From an uncultured Erysipelotrichaceae bacterium (GTDB lineage: Bacteria; Bacillota_I; Bacilli_A; RFN20; CAG-826), in assembly GCA_902769185.1 (NCBI GenBank), contig CACXNV010000006.1, positions 1,062-65,061 of the forward strand: DNA of 64,000 nucleotides. Reading direction: 5' to 3'. Position 1 is the first letter of the stretch. The number at the start of each line of letters is the position of its first letter. Below, piece after piece: positions 4,551 through 48,031 of this stretch. The position numbers were made by a program, and so were the translations under genes. Below the pieces are notes generated by a model. The model made no database searches. It saw only the letters and a list, made by a program, of their open reading frames with translations, and was not told where the DNA came from.

Positions 4551-5924
4551 ATGAATAAATTGAAGCTTTTTGGCAAATATAGTGCGGCAATTACTTTTTT
4601 AGCTTTTGAATTCTTTGCTTTAATTGCTTTTAACTATAGTGGATCATTTGTTTTATTTGGTTCTTTATCTTTGGCGTTATGCCTTTTGTTAATCTTATTT
4701 AATATCGCGGAAATTAAAACTAAAGGGCTTTCTAATGTTGCTTTATTTTTCATCCCTTTATTTTTATTTGTTTTATTAACTGCGGTTGGTAACTATAACA
4801 CGGTGCACACTAAAGTGTTTGGTCATTTTTCTTGGGCTGAAACAGTCTTTATTCCTTTAGGCTTATTAGCTATGGCCTTTAATGGTTATCTATTAAGCAT
4901 TGATAAGAATTTTAAATTAAAGACATTTATCACTGTAGTGTTTTCAGCATTAGCGGTTTATGTATTAATTAACTTTATTTATAACTTAATTAGTTTTGGA
5001 GCGTTTTATCCTCTTGTTTATAAAGGGTATTACTTATATTACTCTGGCATCAAAAGCGAACTTCCTGTAAACGAGTTTGCCTATGTATTAGAAGGGTTTA
5101 AATTTGTGGAAGTAAAGATGGCTCATTATGTTTTGTTCCCATTACTTTTATTATCTAGTAGCGTGATGCTTTTATTTACTTCTCCTAAAAAAGAAAAAGG
5201 CTATTTTATTACTTATTTAGCGTTTACTCTTTTAGCCTTATTTGCTTTAATCTTTATTCCTTCTTTATTATCGCTAGGTGGAATAATCGCTACTGCATTA
5301 TTAGTTTTAGTTATTTATCTAGGTAAGACTTATGTTAAAACTAGAAAAGTCTTTAAGATTGTTTTATTTATTCTATTAGGTCTAGCCTTATTAGGATATT
5401 TATTCTATGTAATTGCAGTCGCTACAGGAATGAGTAATTCCTTTACAGGCATATTAGATAGAATATTTAACTCTAATAGATACGCTAGAAGAGTTAATCC
5501 AATATTAATTAATTTATTCTCAAGTAGTAAGTTTTTAGGATTCTATGGCAATCAAACCGCACCTAGCGTCATTGATGAAGTGAGCTTATCAGGCTTCTTT
5601 ATCTTTGATAGTTTTATGACTAGTGGGGTGATTGGAGCGTTTGCAATCTTTACTTTTATATTCCTAGGCTTTAAATCATTTAAGAAATATTTCTATTCGC
5701 ATAAAGATGAATTTAGATTGCAGGCCACTATGTTACTATTTTTAATTGTCTTTGTTGGTTATAGCGCTTTCTTTAACGAAGGAGAATATACGTTATACTA
5801 TAACGTTTATAAGCCTTTATATTTAACTTCCCCATTTATTTTAATGATCTTTATGCTTTCTTATGTTATTTGTAAATCAAGAGTGGAAACAGAAGAAGTA
5901 AAGGAGGAAATTGTTAATGAATAA
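4551..5924 (+). CDS. Polytopic membrane protein, possible Wzy/O-antigen-ligase-like glycan polymerase
   Basis: At least 10 predicted TM helices, located in a glycan-synthesis neighbourhood. The functional assignment rests on context only. Confidence 0.35.
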   Translation: MNKLKLFGKYSAAITFLAFEFFALIAFNYSGSFVLFGSLSLALCLLLILFNIAEIKTKGLSNVALFFIPLFLFVLLTAVGNYNTVHTKVFGHFSWAETVFIPLGLLAMAFNGYLLSIDKNFKLKTFITVVFSALAVYVLINFIYNLISFGAFYPLVYKGYYLYYSGIKSELPVNEFAYVLEGFKFVEVKMAHYVLFPLLLLSSSVMLLFTSPKKEKGYFITYLAFTLLALFALIFIPSLLSLGGIIATALLVLVIYLGKTYVKTRKVFKIVLFILLGLALLGYLFYVIAVATGMSNSFTGILDRIFNSNRYARRVNPILINLFSSSKFLGFYGNQTAPSVIDEVSLSGFFIFDSFMTSGVIGAFAIFTFIFLGFKSFKKYFYSHKDEFRLQATMLLFLIVFVGYSAFFNEGEYTLYYNVYKPLYLTSPFILMIFMLSYVICKSRVETEEVKEEIVNE

Positions 5925-15323: not shown

Positions 15324-15447
15324 AAAAAACTCCGCGACTAAACGGAGAGATAGCCAATAAAAACAACTTCCTCCGCTAGCATTACCTAGATCAGGTACGG
15401 TCGATTCGAATCAGAATCCTCTCAGCCAGGTTCACCTAGCTCCCAAA
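15324..15447 (-). promoter_or_regulatory. TPP (thi-box) riboswitch with terminator expression platform
   Basis: The reverse complement reads ...GGCTGAGAGG...ACCTGATCTAGGTAATGCTAGCGGAGGAAG..., followed by hairpin ctccg/cggag plus T6 (15324-15347 on the + strand). A candidate promoter has TTGTCC at 15474-15479 and TATAAT at 15452-15457 (both as reverse complement). Confidence 0.9.
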
Positions 15448-15564
15448 ATCTATTATAGACTTGTATGAGAATTGGACAATATAAATATCGCATTATATTT
15501 TCATAATTATTCTCACTTAGTGAGATATTATGTTATGATAATTAGCAATAATGAGGTTATCGTA

Positions 15565-42576: not shown

Positions 42577-42601
42577 AGAGGGATTAATTTCCCTCTTTTT
42601 T
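42577..42601. terminator. Hairpin terminator between convergent genes
   Basis: Stem agaggga(42577-42583)/tccctct(42590-42596) followed by T5. Confidence 0.7.
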
Positions 42602-44051
42602 ATTTGATTTTTCTAGCGATTTGATGTGATGTCAATAAGGCGGTAGGAGTGCCTCCAATACATCTTGTCCACTGACCACAACAATATAGATTTTTAATTC
42701 CTTTAACTCGTCCTTCAGCAAAATAGAAACTCTTTAAATCTGTTAAGGAATATGATTGTAAGGCCCCAAAGGAAGTATGAGTTCTATTCTTTAATTCAAG
42801 TGGGCCAAAATGAGTAAGATATTTAATTCTTCCTTTTAAAGAAGGGTTCTTTTTAATAAGTGAATCAATCATCAAATCGATATTTTGTTTTGTAATTTTC
42901 TGATAATCATCCTTACTTAATGATTTGTAGTAGTGGTAGTCATGTTGATTTTGATCGACAAATAAAGAAACTACAGTTTTATGGTCTTTTATAAAATAGT
43001 CAGGATCAAAATTATATGGCCTTACTAAAAGATAATCTAATTCTTTATGCCCTATTTTTATTGGATCTATATTATATAAAGTTGGTCCGTTAATAGTAGA
43101 TAAATCTCCTTCAACTGTAACATAGACATTAAAGCAAGAAGAGATAGGATTTTTATTTATTCGTTTACGTGCTTTATTAATTTTATTAATTTGATATTTG
43201 TTATCTAGCAAATTATTTAATAAATATTGAGGATCCACACTAGAAACAACAGTGTGCGGCTTTAAGCTATTGTTTTTATTTGTTTTAATTTCTACGATTT
43301 TGTTGTTAGTGATTTCTAATTTAGTGACTTCTTCATTTAATAGTAGTCTACCTCCAAGAGATAAGAACCTATTTTTTATCCGTTCCACCATAAATTTGGA
43401 TCCTCCGCTAGGGAAGTCAGCGTTACCTTGAGAAAATAGGCTATATATATCAAATAAGAAAAACATATTGTTATAGCCCGTCATCATATTAGTAATCGCA
43501 AATCTAAGAGCGGGATTTTTAAATCTTCTCGCGTATTCTTCTCTAGATAAAGATAATGACTTAATAATTGAAGGCGATTTAAAGATGATTTTAGTTAAAT
43601 CAACGAAACTCTTTTTGCTTTTGCATTTAAGCGCATAACTCATTAATTTTTCCATCGCTTTGACTATAGAAAAGAATTTATTGATATTTCTTTTATCTTC
43701 TGGAGCAATAGCTAGCCACTCTAATCTTGTTTTTTCTAAGTCTCTTCCAAACTTTATATTAGCCCCGTTATAGTTAACAGTGACAAAGTTTTCTAACCTT
43801 ATGATTTTAACTTCATCATTAAGGGCATCGATGTTTTTCCATATTTCATAAATCTGGTTATCTTTTTGTGTACCCATTAACCAGTGAATACAAGTGTCAA
43901 TATAAAAACCATTAACGTCGTAGTAGGAGCATAATCCTCCGACGTTATCGTTTTTTTCAATGATTGTGACTTTATGTCCCTTTTGGAGTAATTCGATTCC
44001 AGCGTTAAGACCGGCAATTCCCCCACCGATGACAATGATTTCCTTACTCAT
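42600..44051 (-). CDS. FAD-dependent oxidoreductase (phytoene-desaturase/amine-oxidase superfamily)
   Basis: Dinucleotide-binding N-terminus IIVIGGGIAGLNAGIEL...IIEKNDNVGG. 483 aa. Confidence 0.7.
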   Translation of the reverse strand: MSKEIIVIGGGIAGLNAGIELLQKGHKVTIIEKNDNVGGLCSYYDVNGFYIDTCIHWLMGTQKDNQIYEIWKNIDALNDEVKIIRLENFVTVNYNGANIKFGRDLEKTRLEWLAIAPEDKRNINKFFSIVKAMEKLMSYALKCKSKKSFVDLTKIIFKSPSIIKSLSLSREEYARRFKNPALRFAITNMMTGYNNMFFLFDIYSLFSQGNADFPSGGSKFMVERIKNRFLSLGGRLLLNEEVTKLEITNNKIVEIKTNKNNSLKPHTVVSSVDPQYLLNNLLDNKYQINKINKARKRINKNPISSCFNVYVTVEGDLSTINGPTLYNIDPIKIGHKELDYLLVRPYNFDPDYFIKDHKTVVSLFVDQNQHDYHYYKSLSKDDYQKITKQNIDLMIDSLIKKNPSLKGRIKYLTHFGPLELKNRTHTSFGALQSYSLTDLKSFYFAEGRVKGIKNLYCCGQWTRCIGGTPTALLTSHQIARKIK

Positions 44052-44075
44052 CTTATATATATTTTAAAAAAATAA

Positions 44076-44104
44076 TTGTTGATAGAAAACAAGAGTGATA
44101 TATT
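44076..44104 (+). promoter_or_regulatory. Candidate promoter of the ABC-importer leader
   Basis: TTGTTG at 44076-44081, a 17-nt spacer, and an extended -10 TGaTATATT at 44096-44104. Confidence 0.45.
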
Positions 44105-44129
44105 TTTAACCAAGAAAAGAAGTAATTTT

Positions 44130-44189
44130 ATGAAATTTAGTAAGTATTATTTCTACTTTAGCTATTTCTATCCAAGAGGTAATCAATAG
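44130..44189 (+). CDS. Candidate regulatory leader peptide MKFSKYYFYFSYFYPRGNQ (5 Tyr + 4 Phe in 19 aa)
   Basis: Codons read directly: atg aaa ttt agt aag tat tat ttc tac ttt agc tat ttc tat cca aga ggt aat caa tag. The ORF lies inside a ~200-nt leader and overlaps the first arms of the alternative hairpins. The SD is weak (aagaag). Confidence 0.5.
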   Translation: MKFSKYYFYFSYFYPRGNQ

Positions 44190-44288
44190 ATCTTGGCTTT
44201 TTAGCTAGTAGGTGTGTTGATTACAAATATTAATCAAGCACCGAAATAAGTTGAAGAATTATCGGTGCCAAAAACACCGATTTTATTT
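44172..44288 (+). promoter_or_regulatory. Transcription attenuator: chained alternative hairpins ending in an intrinsic terminator
   Basis: All pairings are perfect complements. S1 gtaatcaa(44179-86) pairs with S2 ttgattac(44217-24). S2 ttgatta pairs with S3 taatcaa(44231-37), supported by ggtg(44211-14):cacc(44239-42). gcaccga(44238-44) pairs with tcggtgc(44262-68). The terminator is atcggtg(44261-67):caccgat(44275-81) followed by ttttattt. Confidence 0.6.
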
Positions 44289-44308
44289 AGAAGGAGGATT
44301 TATATCCT

Positions 44309-45325
44309 ATGAGAAAGAGATTATTTCTATTAACAGCATTACCGTTATTAATGGGTTCTTTAGTGGGGTGTGGCAGTAGTAGCGACGCCATTAAAGTTGG
44401 AATTCTTCAATACGCACCTGCGGAAGCGCTAGATATTGCGCGCTTAAGTTTTAAAGAAACTTTACTTAATTCCCCATTAATTAAAGGCGTCAAAAACATT
44501 GAATTTATTGAAAGATTTTCAATGGCGAAGGATGTTGATGATGTTAATTATGCAAAATCCTTAGTGACTAACTGTGATTTAATGCTTGGGATTGCTACTC
44601 CATCTGCAATTCATTTAAAAAACGAAAGAGATGAAGCTGGCAAGACTACCCCATTATTATTCACTGCAGTAACTGATCCTGTAGACGCTAGATTAGTGAA
44701 TGCTTATCCTCATCAAGGTGGTAACGTGACTGGCACTAGTGATGATAATCCAGTTGAATCCCAAATTAAATTAATCAAAAAGTGTATTGCTCATAAAGCT
44801 GCATCTGAAATTAGATTAGGTATTTTCTACACTAGTAGTGAATCTAATTCCGCTGTCCAAGCTAGAAGAGCAGAAAGTGCTGCTAAGTTAGAAGGACTGC
44901 TTGAAGAAAATATCTTTAACGAGCCATGTACAAGCATTGCTGACCTTCAAGCTAAATGTACAGCTCTAGCAAATAAAGTTGATGTCATCTATATTCCTAC
45001 TGATAACTTATGTGCTAGTAATATGAATATCATTAAACCTATTCTAGATAATGCTCATGTTTTGTGCATCGTTGGAGAAGAAGGAATGCTCAATGGCGGA
45101 CATATTACCTATAGTGTTTCTTATAGCTATTTAGGAAAAAGATGTGGTGAAATGGCCGCAGAAATCCTTTCTGGTAATAAGAAAATTCAAGATATTGATG
45201 TTGAAAAGTCATTAGACCCAAATGATTGGAATAAGGTTTATAGTTCTGCTAATATTGCTGACGCCAATCTAGGTTATTCAATTCCAGGCGATGTCTTAGA
45301 AGACTTTACTGATGTTTCAAAATAA
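44309..45325 (+). CDS. ABC importer substrate-binding lipoprotein, PF04392 (ABC_sub_bind, TrpX-like) family
   Basis: Lipobox LVGCGSS. Family-typical blocks IKVGILQY, LFTAVTDPV and GGNVTGTSD. Confidence 0.8.
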   Translation: MRKRLFLLTALPLLMGSLVGCGSSSDAIKVGILQYAPAEALDIARLSFKETLLNSPLIKGVKNIEFIERFSMAKDVDDVNYAKSLVTNCDLMLGIATPSAIHLKNERDEAGKTTPLLFTAVTDPVDARLVNAYPHQGGNVTGTSDDNPVESQIKLIKKCIAHKAASEIRLGIFYTSSESNSAVQARRAESAAKLEGLLEENIFNEPCTSIADLQAKCTALANKVDVIYIPTDNLCASNMNIIKPILDNAHVLCIVGEEGMLNGGHITYSVSYSYLGKRCGEMAAEILSGNKKIQDIDVEKSLDPNDWNKVYSSANIADANLGYSIPGDVLEDFTDVSK

Positions 45326-45328
45326 TTT

Positions 45329-46264
45329 ATGCCATACATTTTAAGTGTAATATTCAATATATTAACTAGTGGACTTCCGTGCTGCTTACTTGCTCTAGGA
45401 ATCTATCTCACCTTTAGAATTCTTGATTTTGCGGATTTAACCGCTGAAGGTAGCTTATTGATTGGTGGTTCATTTGCTATTGCTTTAATTAAGATTGGTG
45501 TTAATCCTTTTGTTGCTACTTTAGTAGCGACTATCGGAGGAGGACTTTGTGGTTATTTAACTTCAGTGTTTTATACTAAACTTAGAATTCCTAAGATCTT
45601 GTGCGGCATTATTACAATGACCGCCACTAGCTCAATTGCATTATTGATCTTAGGCTTAACTGATGGTACCCAATCATTTATCAATATTGTTTCTTTAGAT
45701 AGTAGTAATCAAACAGTGTTCTCTATATTCTATTTTGGTGATCCTATTTATAGACCTTTAATTAAAGCTGGAGTAATGCTTGCGTTTGTTGTTTTAATCT
45801 TTGTGATTATTTATTTCTTCTTTGGCACAGAATACGGTATTGCTATTAGAGCAACTGGTATCAATGAGAAGATGTCTAGAGCGCAAGGGATTAACACTAA
45901 AAGAGCTTCAATTGTGGCTTTAATTATTTCTAACGCCTTGATTGGTTTAGCAGGCGCTCTTATTTGTCAAAGTAATAGAGGTTGTTCAGTTGGTTATTCT
46001 ACTGGTTATTTAGTGGTTGGTTTAGCCTCCATTATTATTGGGGAGACCATCTTTGGTAATAAATCCTTTAGACGTAGCCTAATTGCTATCTCTATTGGGG
46101 CCATTATTTACTTTGTAATTATTAATGTCGCGATTGAACTTGGATTAAATGGCAACTTACTTAACTTGCTCTACGCTGTGTTAATTGTCTTTGCCTTATC
46201 CTTGCCTTTAATTAAACAAGGTATCTTGTATCTTGTTAAAGAAAGGAGGGAGAAACATGCTTGA
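45329..46264 (+). CDS. ABC importer permease (BPD_transp_2 type)
   Basis: 311 aa with about 9 TM helices. Family partner of PF04392 binding proteins. Confidence 0.8.
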   Translation: MPYILSVIFNILTSGLPCCLLALGIYLTFRILDFADLTAEGSLLIGGSFAIALIKIGVNPFVATLVATIGGGLCGYLTSVFYTKLRIPKILCGIITMTATSSIALLILGLTDGTQSFINIVSLDSSNQTVFSIFYFGDPIYRPLIKAGVMLAFVVLIFVIIYFFFGTEYGIAIRATGINEKMSRAQGINTKRASIVALIISNALIGLAGALICQSNRGCSVGYSTGYLVVGLASIIIGETIFGNKSFRRSLIAISIGAIIYFVIINVAIELGLNGNLLNLLYAVLIVFALSLPLIKQGILYLVKERREKHA

Positions 46265-47264: not shown

Positions 47265-47282
47265 TTAATCTAAACTACAATG

Positions 47283-47311
47283 AACAACCGAACAAAACCG
47301 GTTGTTTTTTT
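47283..47311 (+). terminator. Intrinsic terminator
   Basis: An 8-bp stem aacaaccg/cggttgtt followed by T7. Confidence 0.8.
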
Positions 47312-47356
47312 GTTGCTTGATAAAAGTAATAACTAAGTTATAATGTAATTAACGCT

Positions 47357-48031
47357 ATGAGTCGAAAAAAAGAAGCAATGGTGGATTCTCTGCCATATAA
47401 AAAAGCTAATTGGTGGTATCGTTTTGTAAAGCGTTCTTTTGATATTTGGGTATCATTAATTGCTATTTTAATCTTATCTCCACTTTATCTTTTATTTATT
47501 ATTATCAATGCAATTTATACTAGAGGTCACCCAATCTTTTTTGATAAACGAATTGGTAAAGATCATAAACATATTAACGTCTATAAATATCGTTCTATGT
47601 ATTATGATGCAGAGACTAATGTTGATAAATATTTATCTAAAGCCCAAAAGAAACAGTGGAAGAAAGAAAGAAAAGTGGAAAATGATCCTCGTATCACTCC
47701 ATTTGGTAGAATTTTAAGAAAGACTTCTATTGATGAGTTACCTCAATTATTTAATATCTTATTTGGCTCTATGTCTTTTGTAGGACCTCGACCAATTACT
47801 GAAGGTGAATTAACTAATAACTTCACTAAAGAACAACAAGATATTATGTTGTCCGCTAGACCTGGCTTAATTGGTTATTGGGGAGTTAAAGGTAGAAGTA
47901 ATGTTGCCTTTGCTGATGGAGTGAGACAAAAATTAGAATTAGACTACTTTAAATTAAGAGGTATCTGGTTTGATTTAGGACTAATGTTTAGAGTCATTCC
48001 TGCAGTACTAAAAGGAAGCGGAGCGAAATAG
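47357..48031 (+). CDS. Phosphoglycosyl transferase (bacterial sugar transferase family, small WbaP/EpsL type)
   Basis: Single N-terminal TM helix. Conserved blocks DPRITPFGRILRKTSIDELPQLFNIL and SFVGPRP. Confidence 0.85.
   Translation: MSRKKEAMVDSLPYKKANWWYRFVKRSFDIWVSLIAILILSPLYLLFIIINAIYTRGHPIFFDKRIGKDHKHINVYKYRSMYYDAETNVDKYLSKAQKKQWKKERKVENDPRITPFGRILRKTSIDELPQLFNILFGSMSFVGPRPITEGELTNNFTKEQQDIMLSARPGLIGYWGVKGRSNVAFADGVRQKLELDYFKLRGIWFDLGLMFRVIPAVLKGSGAK

Follow-up and report, generated by a model that had tools for sequence, protein, structure and literature searches.

What controls the transport operon that begins at position 44309 of the 64,000-nucleotide (nt) stretch of DNA analysed here (the window), which comes from an uncultured Erysipelotrichaceae bacterium (contig CACXNV010000006.1)? 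The operon encodes an ATP-binding cassette (ABC) importer with a substrate-binding protein of the PF04392 family, and a 257-nt region separates it from a divergent oxidase gene. We interpreted this region as being, very probably, a ribosome-mediated (leader-peptide) transcription attenuator that senses tyrosine (Tyr) and phenylalanine (Phe) and controls a tyrosine/aromatic amino-acid ABC importer. An earlier reading made from the letters of the window (the sequence-only reading) had pointed to a Tyr/Phe-rich upstream open reading frame (uORF) followed by a chain of mutually exclusive hairpins. The elements of the proposed device are the following.

44130-44189, forward strand: leader peptide open reading frame (ORF) of 19 codons, MKFSKYYFYFSYFYPRGNQ, with ATG at 44130 and TAG at 44187-89
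44145-44171, forward strand: regulatory codon run TAT TAT TTC TAC TTT AGC TAT TTC TAT (YYFYFSYFY), the proposed zone of ribosome stalling when Tyr-tRNA or Phe-tRNA is scarce
44179-44188, forward strand: segment 1 (GUAAUCAAUA), spanning the final three sense codons and running into the stop codon; pairs with segment 2
44211-44242, forward strand: anti-antiterminator hairpin, with segment 2 (UGUUGAUUAC, 44215-24) in its 5' half; -9.8 kcal/mol when folded alone
44238-44268, forward strand: antiterminator, GCACCGA (44238-44) with UCGGUGC (44262-68); -9.4 kcal/mol
44261-44288, forward strand: intrinsic terminator, AUCGGUG (44261-67), loop CCAAAAA, CACCGAU (44275-81) and U-tract UUUUAUUU

The leader peptide contained nine Tyr or Phe residues, eight of them within the nine codons 44145-44171. 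Downstream of the run, GTAATCAA (44179-86) and TTGATTAC (44217-24) are perfectly complementary, and this helix grows to 10 base pairs (44179-88 with 44215-24, one of them G-U). The inner helix of the anti-antiterminator is formed by TTGATTA (44217-23) with TAATCAA (44231-37), and its closing helix by GGUGU (44211-15) with GCACC (44238-42), that is, GGTG (44211-14) with CACC (44239-42) plus U44215-G44238. In the DNA, the last terminator arm CACCGAT (44275-81) is followed by TTTTATTT. No other terminator-like site was found in 43800-44600, and the site cannot belong to the upstream gene (42600-44051), because that gene is divergent.

The leader (44105-44310) folded at -49.6 kcal/mol, against -32.8 +/- 3.8 for shuffled sequences (z = -4.4). 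Only one other ATG uORF in the 64-kb window reached six Tyr/Phe in 10 codons. It lies at 4735-4779 on the forward strand (MLLYFSSLYFYLFY) and may sit inside a gene in another frame. The clustering of the nine aromatic codons and the five-segment chain of perfect complements with its terminator, as given by the sequence-only reading, were found again at every coordinate, and the arrangement is far beyond chance.

These elements suggested the following mechanism. Transcription would begin near 44112, and a ribosome would translate the 19-codon leader. With Tyr and Phe plentiful, the ribosome would pass YYFYFSYFY and cover segment 1 (44179-88) on reaching the last codons and the stop. Segment 2 would then be free to fold into the anti-antiterminator (44211-42), which would lock GCACC; the antiterminator would be blocked, the terminator (44261-81 and the U-tract) would form, and transcription would stop near 44288. 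With Tyr or Phe scarce, on the other hand, the ribosome would stall in the run and leave segment 1 free. Segment 1 would pair with segment 2 over 10 base pairs and break the anti-antiterminator, GCACCGA would pair with UCGGUGC, the terminator would be barred, and the importer genes would be transcribed. Charged tRNA-Tyr would probably be the sensed signal, and probably tRNA-Phe too. We infer from the sequence that the uORF is translated, that ribosomes stall on it upon starvation and that transcripts end at about 44288.

The decisive evidence came from comparison. Homologues of the binding protein were graded from 99% to less than 40% identity, nearly all of them in gut and rumen Bacilli that have not been cultured. 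When 33 of these homologues were aligned (alignment A1) and the alignment was used to scan genomes, 80 loci were returned, of which 77 were usable. Their hosts were metagenome-assembled genomes of 'Bacilli bacterium', Acholeplasmataceae and Erysipelotrichaceae, together with Haploplasma modicum, Streptococcus salivarius, S. henryi and S. entericus, and one Anaerofustis and one Chloroflexi genome.

The expected Y/F-rich uORF was found in the leaders of these homologous PF04392 loci. An ATG uORF with at least six Tyr/Phe in 10 codons was present in 67 of the 77, and one with at least seven in 55. Dinucleotide-shuffled controls reached at least six in 14 of 1540 cases and at least seven in 4 of 1540, and the reverse strand reached at least six in 2 of 77 loci. 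Even at about 35% protein identity, leaders still had the uORF with its Tyr/Phe bias. In almost all loci, the terminator lay 60-130 nt past the uORF stop and about 25 nt before the ATG of the binding-protein gene.

The uORFs gave 55 distinct peptides of 13-36 amino acids, in which the N-termini varied and the aromatic run was constant. Among their 1174 residues, there were 288 Tyr, 149 Phe and 1 Trp. Six of the peptides are given here.

Locus L001, leader peptide: MFNKYYFYFSYFYPRGNQ
Locus L002, leader peptide: MRNSYAFYFYYYYFSRN
Locus L015, leader peptide: MIKSINNVNQYYYYYYFPRRCHV
Locus L055, leader peptide: MFNKNLQTQVYYYYYYQGDIMI
Locus L073, leader peptide: MLNKATHLGNLKAFYYFSFFR
Locus L072, leader peptide: MKRRFFYYYYYYFSPAVECCAANI

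The regulatory runs in the family were 6-10 codons long, with Tyr and Phe at 2:1, and in most peptides the run was followed by Arg (AGA, AGG or CGC). In close relatives, the run differed from that of the window only synonymously (TAC to TAT, TTC to TTT, AGC to AGT, TAG to TAA), and all uORF changes in L201 and L204 were likewise synonymous. Shine-Dalgarno cores (GGAG, GAGG or AGGA) stood at -17 to -4 in 31 of the 55 distinct leaders, compared with 5% at control positions. This pattern is the one expected, as far as sequence comparison tells, of a translated regulatory ORF and not of a protein-binding triplet repeat. Judged by its distribution, the leader element is a widespread family and not peculiar to this genome.

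Metagenome contigs were also scanned with the conserved 17-mer TCTTGGYYTTTTRGCTA. The leader was present in 5 of the 120 loci retrieved (L089, L090, L122, L126 and L186), all of one type, and the pattern was too unspecific for the 241 million metagenome records. Other PF04392 homologues had no upstream Tyr/Phe uORF (L044, L056, L057, L064, L068-L070 and L074), so their regulation must differ. They included an Acholeplasmataceae, a Streptococcus gallinaceus, Chloroflexi and other Bacillota.

The pairing between the end of the uORF and segment 2 was compared across the family. In 51 leaders, the last six uORF codons and the stop were duplexed with their own downstream region and with the regions of the other leaders. 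The mean energy with the own partner was -13.2 kcal/mol, against -8.6 (standard deviation 3.0) with the partners of other leaders and -8.0 for shuffled segment 1. The own partner ranked among the top 6 of 51 in 36 of the 51 leaders.

Between clades, the letters of segments 1 and 2 differed wholly and their complementarity was kept: GUAAUCAAUA/UGUUGAUUAC in the window, GGUGUCAUGU/ACAUGACAUC in L015, AAGAUAUUGUG/CACAAUAUCUU in L063 and AGGAUAUCA/UGAUAUCCU in L025. L021 had one extra nucleotide in segment 1 and a matching extra one in segment 2. The Acholeplasma-type leaders had a different but equivalent relay (GUGUUAUUAC, GUAAUAACAC, GUGUUAUUAC, GUAAUARCAC) after the same uORF-end pairing.

The clade of the window, 18 sequences aligned with MAFFT (alignment A2), was used for covariation. 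The antitermination structure (the segment 1:2 helix with the antiterminator) was paired in 96.4% of cells, compared with 21-52% when the partner was slid, and five of its pairs had changed on both sides, a number reached by 0 of 500 shuffles. Taken separately, the segment 1:2 helix was paired in 95.6% of cells with three covarying pairs, and the antiterminator helix in 97.6% with two. The termination-state structure was paired in 89%, against 23-45% when slid; within it, the terminator was paired in 100% of cells with three covarying pairs, and the inner helix of the anti-antiterminator in 86%. The closing helix GGUGU:GCACC was undercounted at 60% because the gaps that alignment A2 sets around AGGTG are wrong and L011 is misaligned in it; on inspection by eye, every member of the clade had GGUG and CACC. 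In L011, all four chained segments changed together, with GGUG to GAUG accompanied by CACC to CAUC. The compensatory stem changes that the sequence-only reading had named as a check were thus seen in the segment 1:2 helix, the antiterminator and the terminator alike.

A further hairpin, P0, surrounds the end of the uORF.

44159-44164, forward strand: 5' arm of the outer helix, UAGCUA, partner 44202-44207; 95% of cells paired over the 18 clade members
44202-44207, forward strand: 3' arm of the outer helix, UAGCUA, partner 44159-44164
44172-44177, forward strand: 5' arm of hairpin P0, CCAAGA (the Pro-Arg codons), partner 44191-44196; 97% of cells paired in the same clade
44191-44202, forward strand: 3' arm of hairpin P0, UCUUGG (44191-96), then C, then a U-run at 44198-44202; candidate pause signal

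P0 (CCAAGA with UCUUGG) encloses segment 1 and the uORF stop codon, CUUUUU follows it directly, and the outer UAGCUA helix extends it. The Ser codon is conserved inside the Tyr/Phe run because the arm of the outer helix (44159-64) lies there. A P0-like hairpin with a U-run was present in 39 of the 55 distinct leaders, against 18% of shuffles, with compensatory variants CUAAG:CUUAG in L051, AGCAG:CUGCU in L019 and CAAGGAAG:CUUCUUUG in L063. In L021 and L029, CCAAG was kept in another reading frame (YQGVNQ instead of YPRGNQ), which indicated a constraint on the RNA and not on the peptide. A peptide-level role for the conserved Pro-Arg after the run was rejected on this ground, and because the C-terminal residues covaried with their RNA partner.

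P0 and its U-run may hold RNA polymerase until the ribosome arrives, or may keep segment 1 captive in the absence of a stalled ribosome. In hosts whose transcription tends to run ahead of translation, such as B. subtilis (PMC7858274), either of the two roles would be of consequence.

The effect of ribosome position was simulated by masking the RNA from its 5' end to 12 nt past the A site, folding the transcript to the end of the terminator loop and measuring the sequestration of the 5' arm of the terminator.

A site at any codon up to Tyr14: 5' arm sequestered 0.90
A site at Pro15: 0.62
A site at Arg16: 0.23
A site at Gly or Asn: 0.17
A site at Gln: 0.04
A site at the stop codon: 0.38

The fold switched between Tyr14 and Arg16, i.e. 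at the end of the Tyr/Phe run, and a simulated stall at any codon of the run left the antiterminator favoured. When 44190-44237 was shuffled 300 times, the difference was -0.006 +/- 0.05, and none came near the native 0.52. The switch logic of the sequence-only reading, in which the position of the ribosome selects the structure, was reproduced in this calculation (0.90 up to Tyr14, 0.04-0.38 from Arg16 to stop).

The predicted cargo was examined next to the codon bias. The genes of the operon are as follows.

44309-45325, forward strand: substrate-binding lipoprotein, PF04392 (Pfam E = 8e-38, 130.7 bits), predicted tyrosine binder
45329-46264, forward strand: ABC permease, PF02653
46257-47264, forward strand: ABC ATPase, PF00005; its likely ATG (46257) overlaps the end of the permease gene
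47282-47315, forward strand: terminator at the end of the operon

The closest structure in the PDB to the binding protein of the window was 6HNI, Clostridioides difficile CD0873. CD0873 binds tyrosine; its Glu-263 hydrogen-bonds the phenol hydroxyl, and its Tyr-279 sterically excludes tryptophan (PMC6816091). Its Phe- and Trp-binding relatives have Ala at the Glu-263 position, and the Trp binder has Gln at the Tyr-279 position (PMC6816091). E257 and Y272 of the window protein aligned to Glu-263 and Tyr-279, and both columns were invariant in alignment A1. Glu and Tyr occupied these columns in 61 of the 69 leader-associated homologues; the S. salivarius group had Asp and Tyr. The window protein is therefore predicted from its sequence to fit the CD0873-like, tyrosine-specific type of PF04392 importer, and the match between codon bias and cargo that had been supposed for this operon held. 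The loci without a Tyr/Phe uORF also kept the Glu/Tyr residues, in all but L074 (Ser/Tyr).

Loss of a C. difficile ABC transporter lowered uptake of both Tyr and Phe (PMC5951980). The mixed Tyr/Phe runs would match this, if that transporter belongs to the CD0873 family.

Known RNA families did not account for the leader. At gathering thresholds, Rfam gave a transfer-messenger RNA (tmRNA), a thiamine pyrophosphate (TPP) riboswitch and two tRNAs over the whole window and none in this leader, and permissive E-values gave noise only there. The absence of a T-box (RF00230) or riboswitch match had been foreseen: the T-box model had no match in 43950-44450 at the gathering threshold or at E <= 10 and none in 20 related loci, and in these loci no T-box, riboswitch or leader family was found upstream of the transporter. 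The known leader-peptide families (RF01859 Phe_leader, Trp, His, Leu and Thr) had no match in the window even at E <= 10, and RF01859 produced only noise on the wrong strand of L073 (15 bits, E = 8.4). E-value scans of the window and of an Acholeplasma-type leader with Rfam gave no uORF or leader family.

The start of the leader was examined for signals of transcription and translation.

44079-44106, forward strand: promoter-like site, -35 TTGATA (44079-84), 16-nt spacer, -10 TATTTT (44101-06); 9 of 12 matches
44096-44104, forward strand: another reading of the promoter-like site, TGaTATATT
44291-44297, forward strand: Shine-Dalgarno sequence AAGGAGG of the substrate-binding protein gene, 3' of the terminator and not sequestered by it

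The block TTGTTGATA...GTGATATATTTTTAA of the promoter region was kept in the close relatives (L001 and L201-L205). The start of transcription would lie near CAAG, at about 44111-44114. In window positions 44107-44129 and their equivalents in L001, L017, L023, L038 and L201-L205, CAAG was conserved a few nt past the -10 box, and the 5' untranslated region was short and A-rich.

Several points weighed against the attenuator interpretation. The uORF in the window had no Shine-Dalgarno sequence; AAGAAAAGAAGUAAUUUU stood upstream of it. The uORFs of its whole sub-clade also lacked one, and strong GGAGG sites stood before the uORF in other sub-clades. The leaders of the window's sub-clade hint at initiation independent of such a site. 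The uORF lies about 17 nt 3' of the proposed transcription start in an A-rich, presumably unstructured 5' untranslated region, where initiation is plausible.

The folding results also had an adverse side. The same calculation on 63 distinct leaders gave a mean shift of +0.15, above +0.2 in 22 and below -0.2 in none, so that the equilibrium switch was weak or absent in about two-thirds of the relatives. This is not surprising for a kinetically controlled device, and the mechanism for the whole family therefore rests on architecture and covariation and not on simulation. The mask folding is itself an equilibrium calculation, and attenuation is kinetic. With no ribosome on the RNA, the model predicted read-through (0.90), a departure from the E. 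coli trp paradigm that a capture of segment 1 by P0 would remove. Stalling at the last Tyr codon might already bring the ribosome over part of segment 1. In B. subtilis, transcription outruns translation (PMC7858274); if it did likewise in this host, the mechanism would be disfavoured unless RNA polymerase pauses. The sensed residue may be Tyr, Phe or both; with the one tested Phe-Tyr-Phe leader, aroR of Corynebacterium glutamicum, only the availability of Phe mattered, as far as the account in PMC11802643 goes.

Other explanations were weighed against the same evidence. An RNA-binding protein might read the run as repeated UAY/UUY triplets, TRAP-like, as with (G/U)AG repeats, and make the same choice between terminator and antiterminator, with the ORF incidental. 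The run does repeat in triplets, Bacilli often use attenuation mediated by proteins (B. subtilis TRAP, PMC3064811), and the missing Shine-Dalgarno sequence in the window would suit such a reader. This we considered very unlikely. In the 67 of 77 loci, the run without exception shared its frame with an ATG before it and a stop shortly after it, and no stop interrupted it; strong Shine-Dalgarno sequences preceded the ATG in more than half of the distinct leaders (31 of 55, against the 5% background). Substitutions in the run were synonymous or Tyr-to-Phe exchanges, the number and spacing of the triplets varied freely between leaders, and the switch in the fold fell on the codon at which segment 1 would come under a translating ribosome. 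We judged it extremely unlikely that the leader binds an effector (tyrosine, tRNA-Tyr or some other) directly, whether as a riboswitch or as a different RNA sensor of ligands or tRNA, for instance a degenerate T-box. T-boxes do control paralogous TrpX transporters in streptococci (PMC9382623), and the leader is strongly structured (z = -4.4), but no Rfam model came at or near threshold in the window or the 20 related loci. Between the uORF and the terminator, the RNA was made up of simple alternative hairpins whose loops varied, no core resembling a pocket was conserved, and the codon run was the only conserved feature outside the helices.

A uORF that is translated could also sense general translation speed or ribosome-targeting drugs, like the erm, bmrCD and vmlR leaders, or its aromatic nascent peptide could arrest the ribosome. 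Antibiotic-responsive, ribosome-mediated attenuators exist in Bacilli (PMC4191407, PMC9226507), and in most peptides an Arg comes after the run. Over the 55 variants, however, the Tyr/Phe composition was the sole conserved feature of the peptide and no defined arrest motif was seen; the residues after the run followed the RNA pairings, with CCAAG out of frame in L021 and L029 and the C-terminus covarying with segment 2. The importer that would be regulated has a tyrosine-type binding pocket, which matches amino-acid sensing, and we gave this explanation very little probability. Next to no likelihood was left for a uORF that arose by chance in an AT-rich spacer, with the hairpins as an ordinary constitutive terminator of upstream transcription. 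The genome has 33% G+C, which favours TAT and TTT codons, but fewer than 1% of shuffles reached the observed Tyr/Phe density, and with the upstream gene divergent there is no upstream transcript to terminate. The arrangement was conserved over phylum-level distances with covariation, and the shuffle and pairing tests already refuted a chance origin.

The attenuator interpretation was then compared with known systems. Like the Proteobacterial attenuators (E. coli trpL, pheL/pheA, pheST and hisL), the leader has a short ORF with a run of the sensed codons, an ORF end that overlaps the first exclusive helix, an antiterminator/terminator pair, and the position of the ribosome as the read-out. The his leader also uses a multi-segment relay. 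On the other hand, there was no sequence or Rfam similarity, mainly tyrosine would be sensed here, the hosts are low-GC Bacilli, and an importer is targeted here in place of biosynthesis or tRNA synthetase genes. A further difference is the additional relay hairpin (the anti-antiterminator), by which the lack of translation is predicted to lead to read-through at equilibrium. No Tyr run was present in the compared leader peptides (Trp, Phe, His, Cys, Leu and the Phe-Tyr-Phe aroR).

The rarity of leader-peptide attenuation in low-GC Gram-positives, as the sequence-only reading had put it, stood, but examples do exist: His in Bacilli, Leu in Staphylococcus aureus and aroF in Acholeplasma. The His leader of hisS/hisZ paralogues in bacilli was called the first 'regular' leader peptide in Firmicutes (PMC2965389), and S. 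aureus ilv-leu has a Leu-rich attenuator peptide (PMC5794164). These share the mechanism and the phylum with the present leader and show that the mechanism is possible in low-GC Gram-positives; they differ in the amino acids and genes concerned, and their taxonomic range is narrow. The present family extends over Acholeplasmatales-like, Erysipelotrichaceae-like and Streptococcus genomes, with single Eubacteriales and Chloroflexi examples.

The Acholeplasma case is uORFC-13-1 (Brewer et al. 2021, PMC8632094), found in Acholeplasma and environmental DNA exclusively upstream of aroF, the gene of 3-deoxy-D-arabino-heptulosonate 7-phosphate (DAHP) synthase, and read as Phe-sensing. It was proposed to sense an aromatic amino acid via ribosome speed (PMC8632094). 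It resembles the present leaders in its promoter, ribosome-binding site, start codon, U-rich Phe-coding run, adjacent intrinsic terminator and one more covarying helix (PMC8632094), and many of the present leaders are from Acholeplasmataceae. Unlike uORFC-13-1, the leader here, like those of all related loci, precedes importer genes (PF04392 binding protein, permease and ATPase) and not aroF; PMC8632094 drew no link of uORFC-13-1 to PF04392 transporters or to tyrosine. By comparison with its published description, uORFC-13-1 may be related to the present family.

The aroR leader upstream of aroF in C. glutamicum (Neshat et al. 2014, via PMC11802643), with Phe-Tyr-Phe, is presented there as an experimentally supported attenuator. 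According to that account, it shares mixed Phe and Tyr regulatory codons in a leader peptide and differs in its host (Actinobacteria), its biosynthetic operon, its three regulatory codons and its response to Phe and not to Tyr.

Within the same transporter family, the S. suis TrpXYZ paralogue is controlled by a T-box with a leader of about 680 nt, which binds uncharged tRNA directly (PMC9382623). There, too, a choice between terminator and antiterminator answers tRNA charging. The sensor proposed here is instead the translating ribosome, and the leader is about 180 nt. Literature searches on Tyr leader peptides, or on PF04392/COG2984 with attenuation, gave no description of this element, in agreement with the view that such attenuation had not been described for a PF04392 transporter.

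One catalogued RNA may belong to the family. In Enterococcus faecium, sRNA_2410 was validated by Northern blot as an RNA of about 195 nt that occurs in two transcript forms; no function has been assigned to it (Sinel et al. 2017, PMC5593968). Its Rfam model, RF02863, had a full-length match at 2669-2868 of L073 (S. salivarius KSS6, upstream of the PF04392 gene), with 32.3 bits and a local E of 0.0013. This is below the gathering score of 61 bits, and the window gave no match to RF02863. The consensus of the model begins uuaGCuacUUuaGauaG, which gives the codons F-S-Y-F-R-stop when aligned to the streptococcal uORF end. The segment 1:2 pairing has its counterpart in the outer helix of the model, and the terminator in the last hairpin. 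The alignment suggests distant homology to the S. salivarius sub-family only. RF02863 is annotated as a free-standing small RNA, and no uORF or attenuator role was proposed for sRNA_2410. From the match, sRNA_2410 is probably the terminated leader of a homologous attenuator rather than a free-standing small RNA. Premature termination in this family would then have indirect experimental backing.

Some other features around the operon and elsewhere in the window were recorded.

42600-44051, reverse strand: gene of the flavin adenine dinucleotide (FAD)-dependent amine-oxidase family, PF01593, divergent from the importer operon
47317-47344: near-consensus promoter-like site (TTGATA, 16 nt, TATAAT; 11 of 12) right after the operon terminator
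47357-48031: sugar transferase gene (PF02397, bacterial), downstream of that promoter-like site
15351-15456, reverse strand: TPP riboswitch, 60.7 bits
1805-2193, forward strand: tmRNA, 109.5 bits

The divergent PF01593 neighbour was also present in the close relatives (L001 and L201-L205), and its annotation makes a metabolic tie to aromatic amino acids or amines possible. The TPP riboswitch indicated that this genome uses riboswitches besides the leader-peptide device. A purine riboswitch (81 bits) was found at 1110-1211 of L041, a human-gut Bacilli metagenome-assembled genome, about 1.8 kb upstream of the leader-controlled transporter.

The mechanism proposed here is that of a textbook leader-peptide attenuator, and this leader is outside any catalogued RNA family. 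Since the compared leader peptides have no Tyr run, the family would add tyrosine to the amino acids so sensed. In it, the leader-peptide mechanism would govern uptake rather than synthesis, and would be widespread, not an oddity, among low-GC Bacilli, with streptococci and the gut and rumen lineages of reduced genome among the carriers. At least one small RNA catalogued in Enterococcus may also be an attenuated leader.

Because transcription outruns translation in B. subtilis, a ribosome-timed attenuator in related organisms would be a concrete place to test whether and how coupling is restored locally, for which the conserved stop-codon hairpin with its U-run is one candidate. A wider view is possible, which we hold only tentatively and think somewhat unlikely as a whole. 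In it, Tyr-run leaders would be the standard and so far overlooked control of tyrosine ABC importers in much of the Bacilli (Acholeplasmatales-like gut lineages, Erysipelotrichaceae, Streptococcus and probably Enterococcus, with sRNA_2410 as a terminated leader), and the stop-codon hairpin with its U-run would be a dedicated RNA polymerase pause site that re-synchronises transcription with the leading ribosome. Such a pause site, if real, would be a natural and widespread example in which transcription and translation must be coupled at a defined position, in a phylum whose transcription is believed to run ahead of translation. For the transporters themselves, the family predicts that a large set of uncharacterised PF04392 systems are starvation-induced tyrosine/phenylalanine importers.

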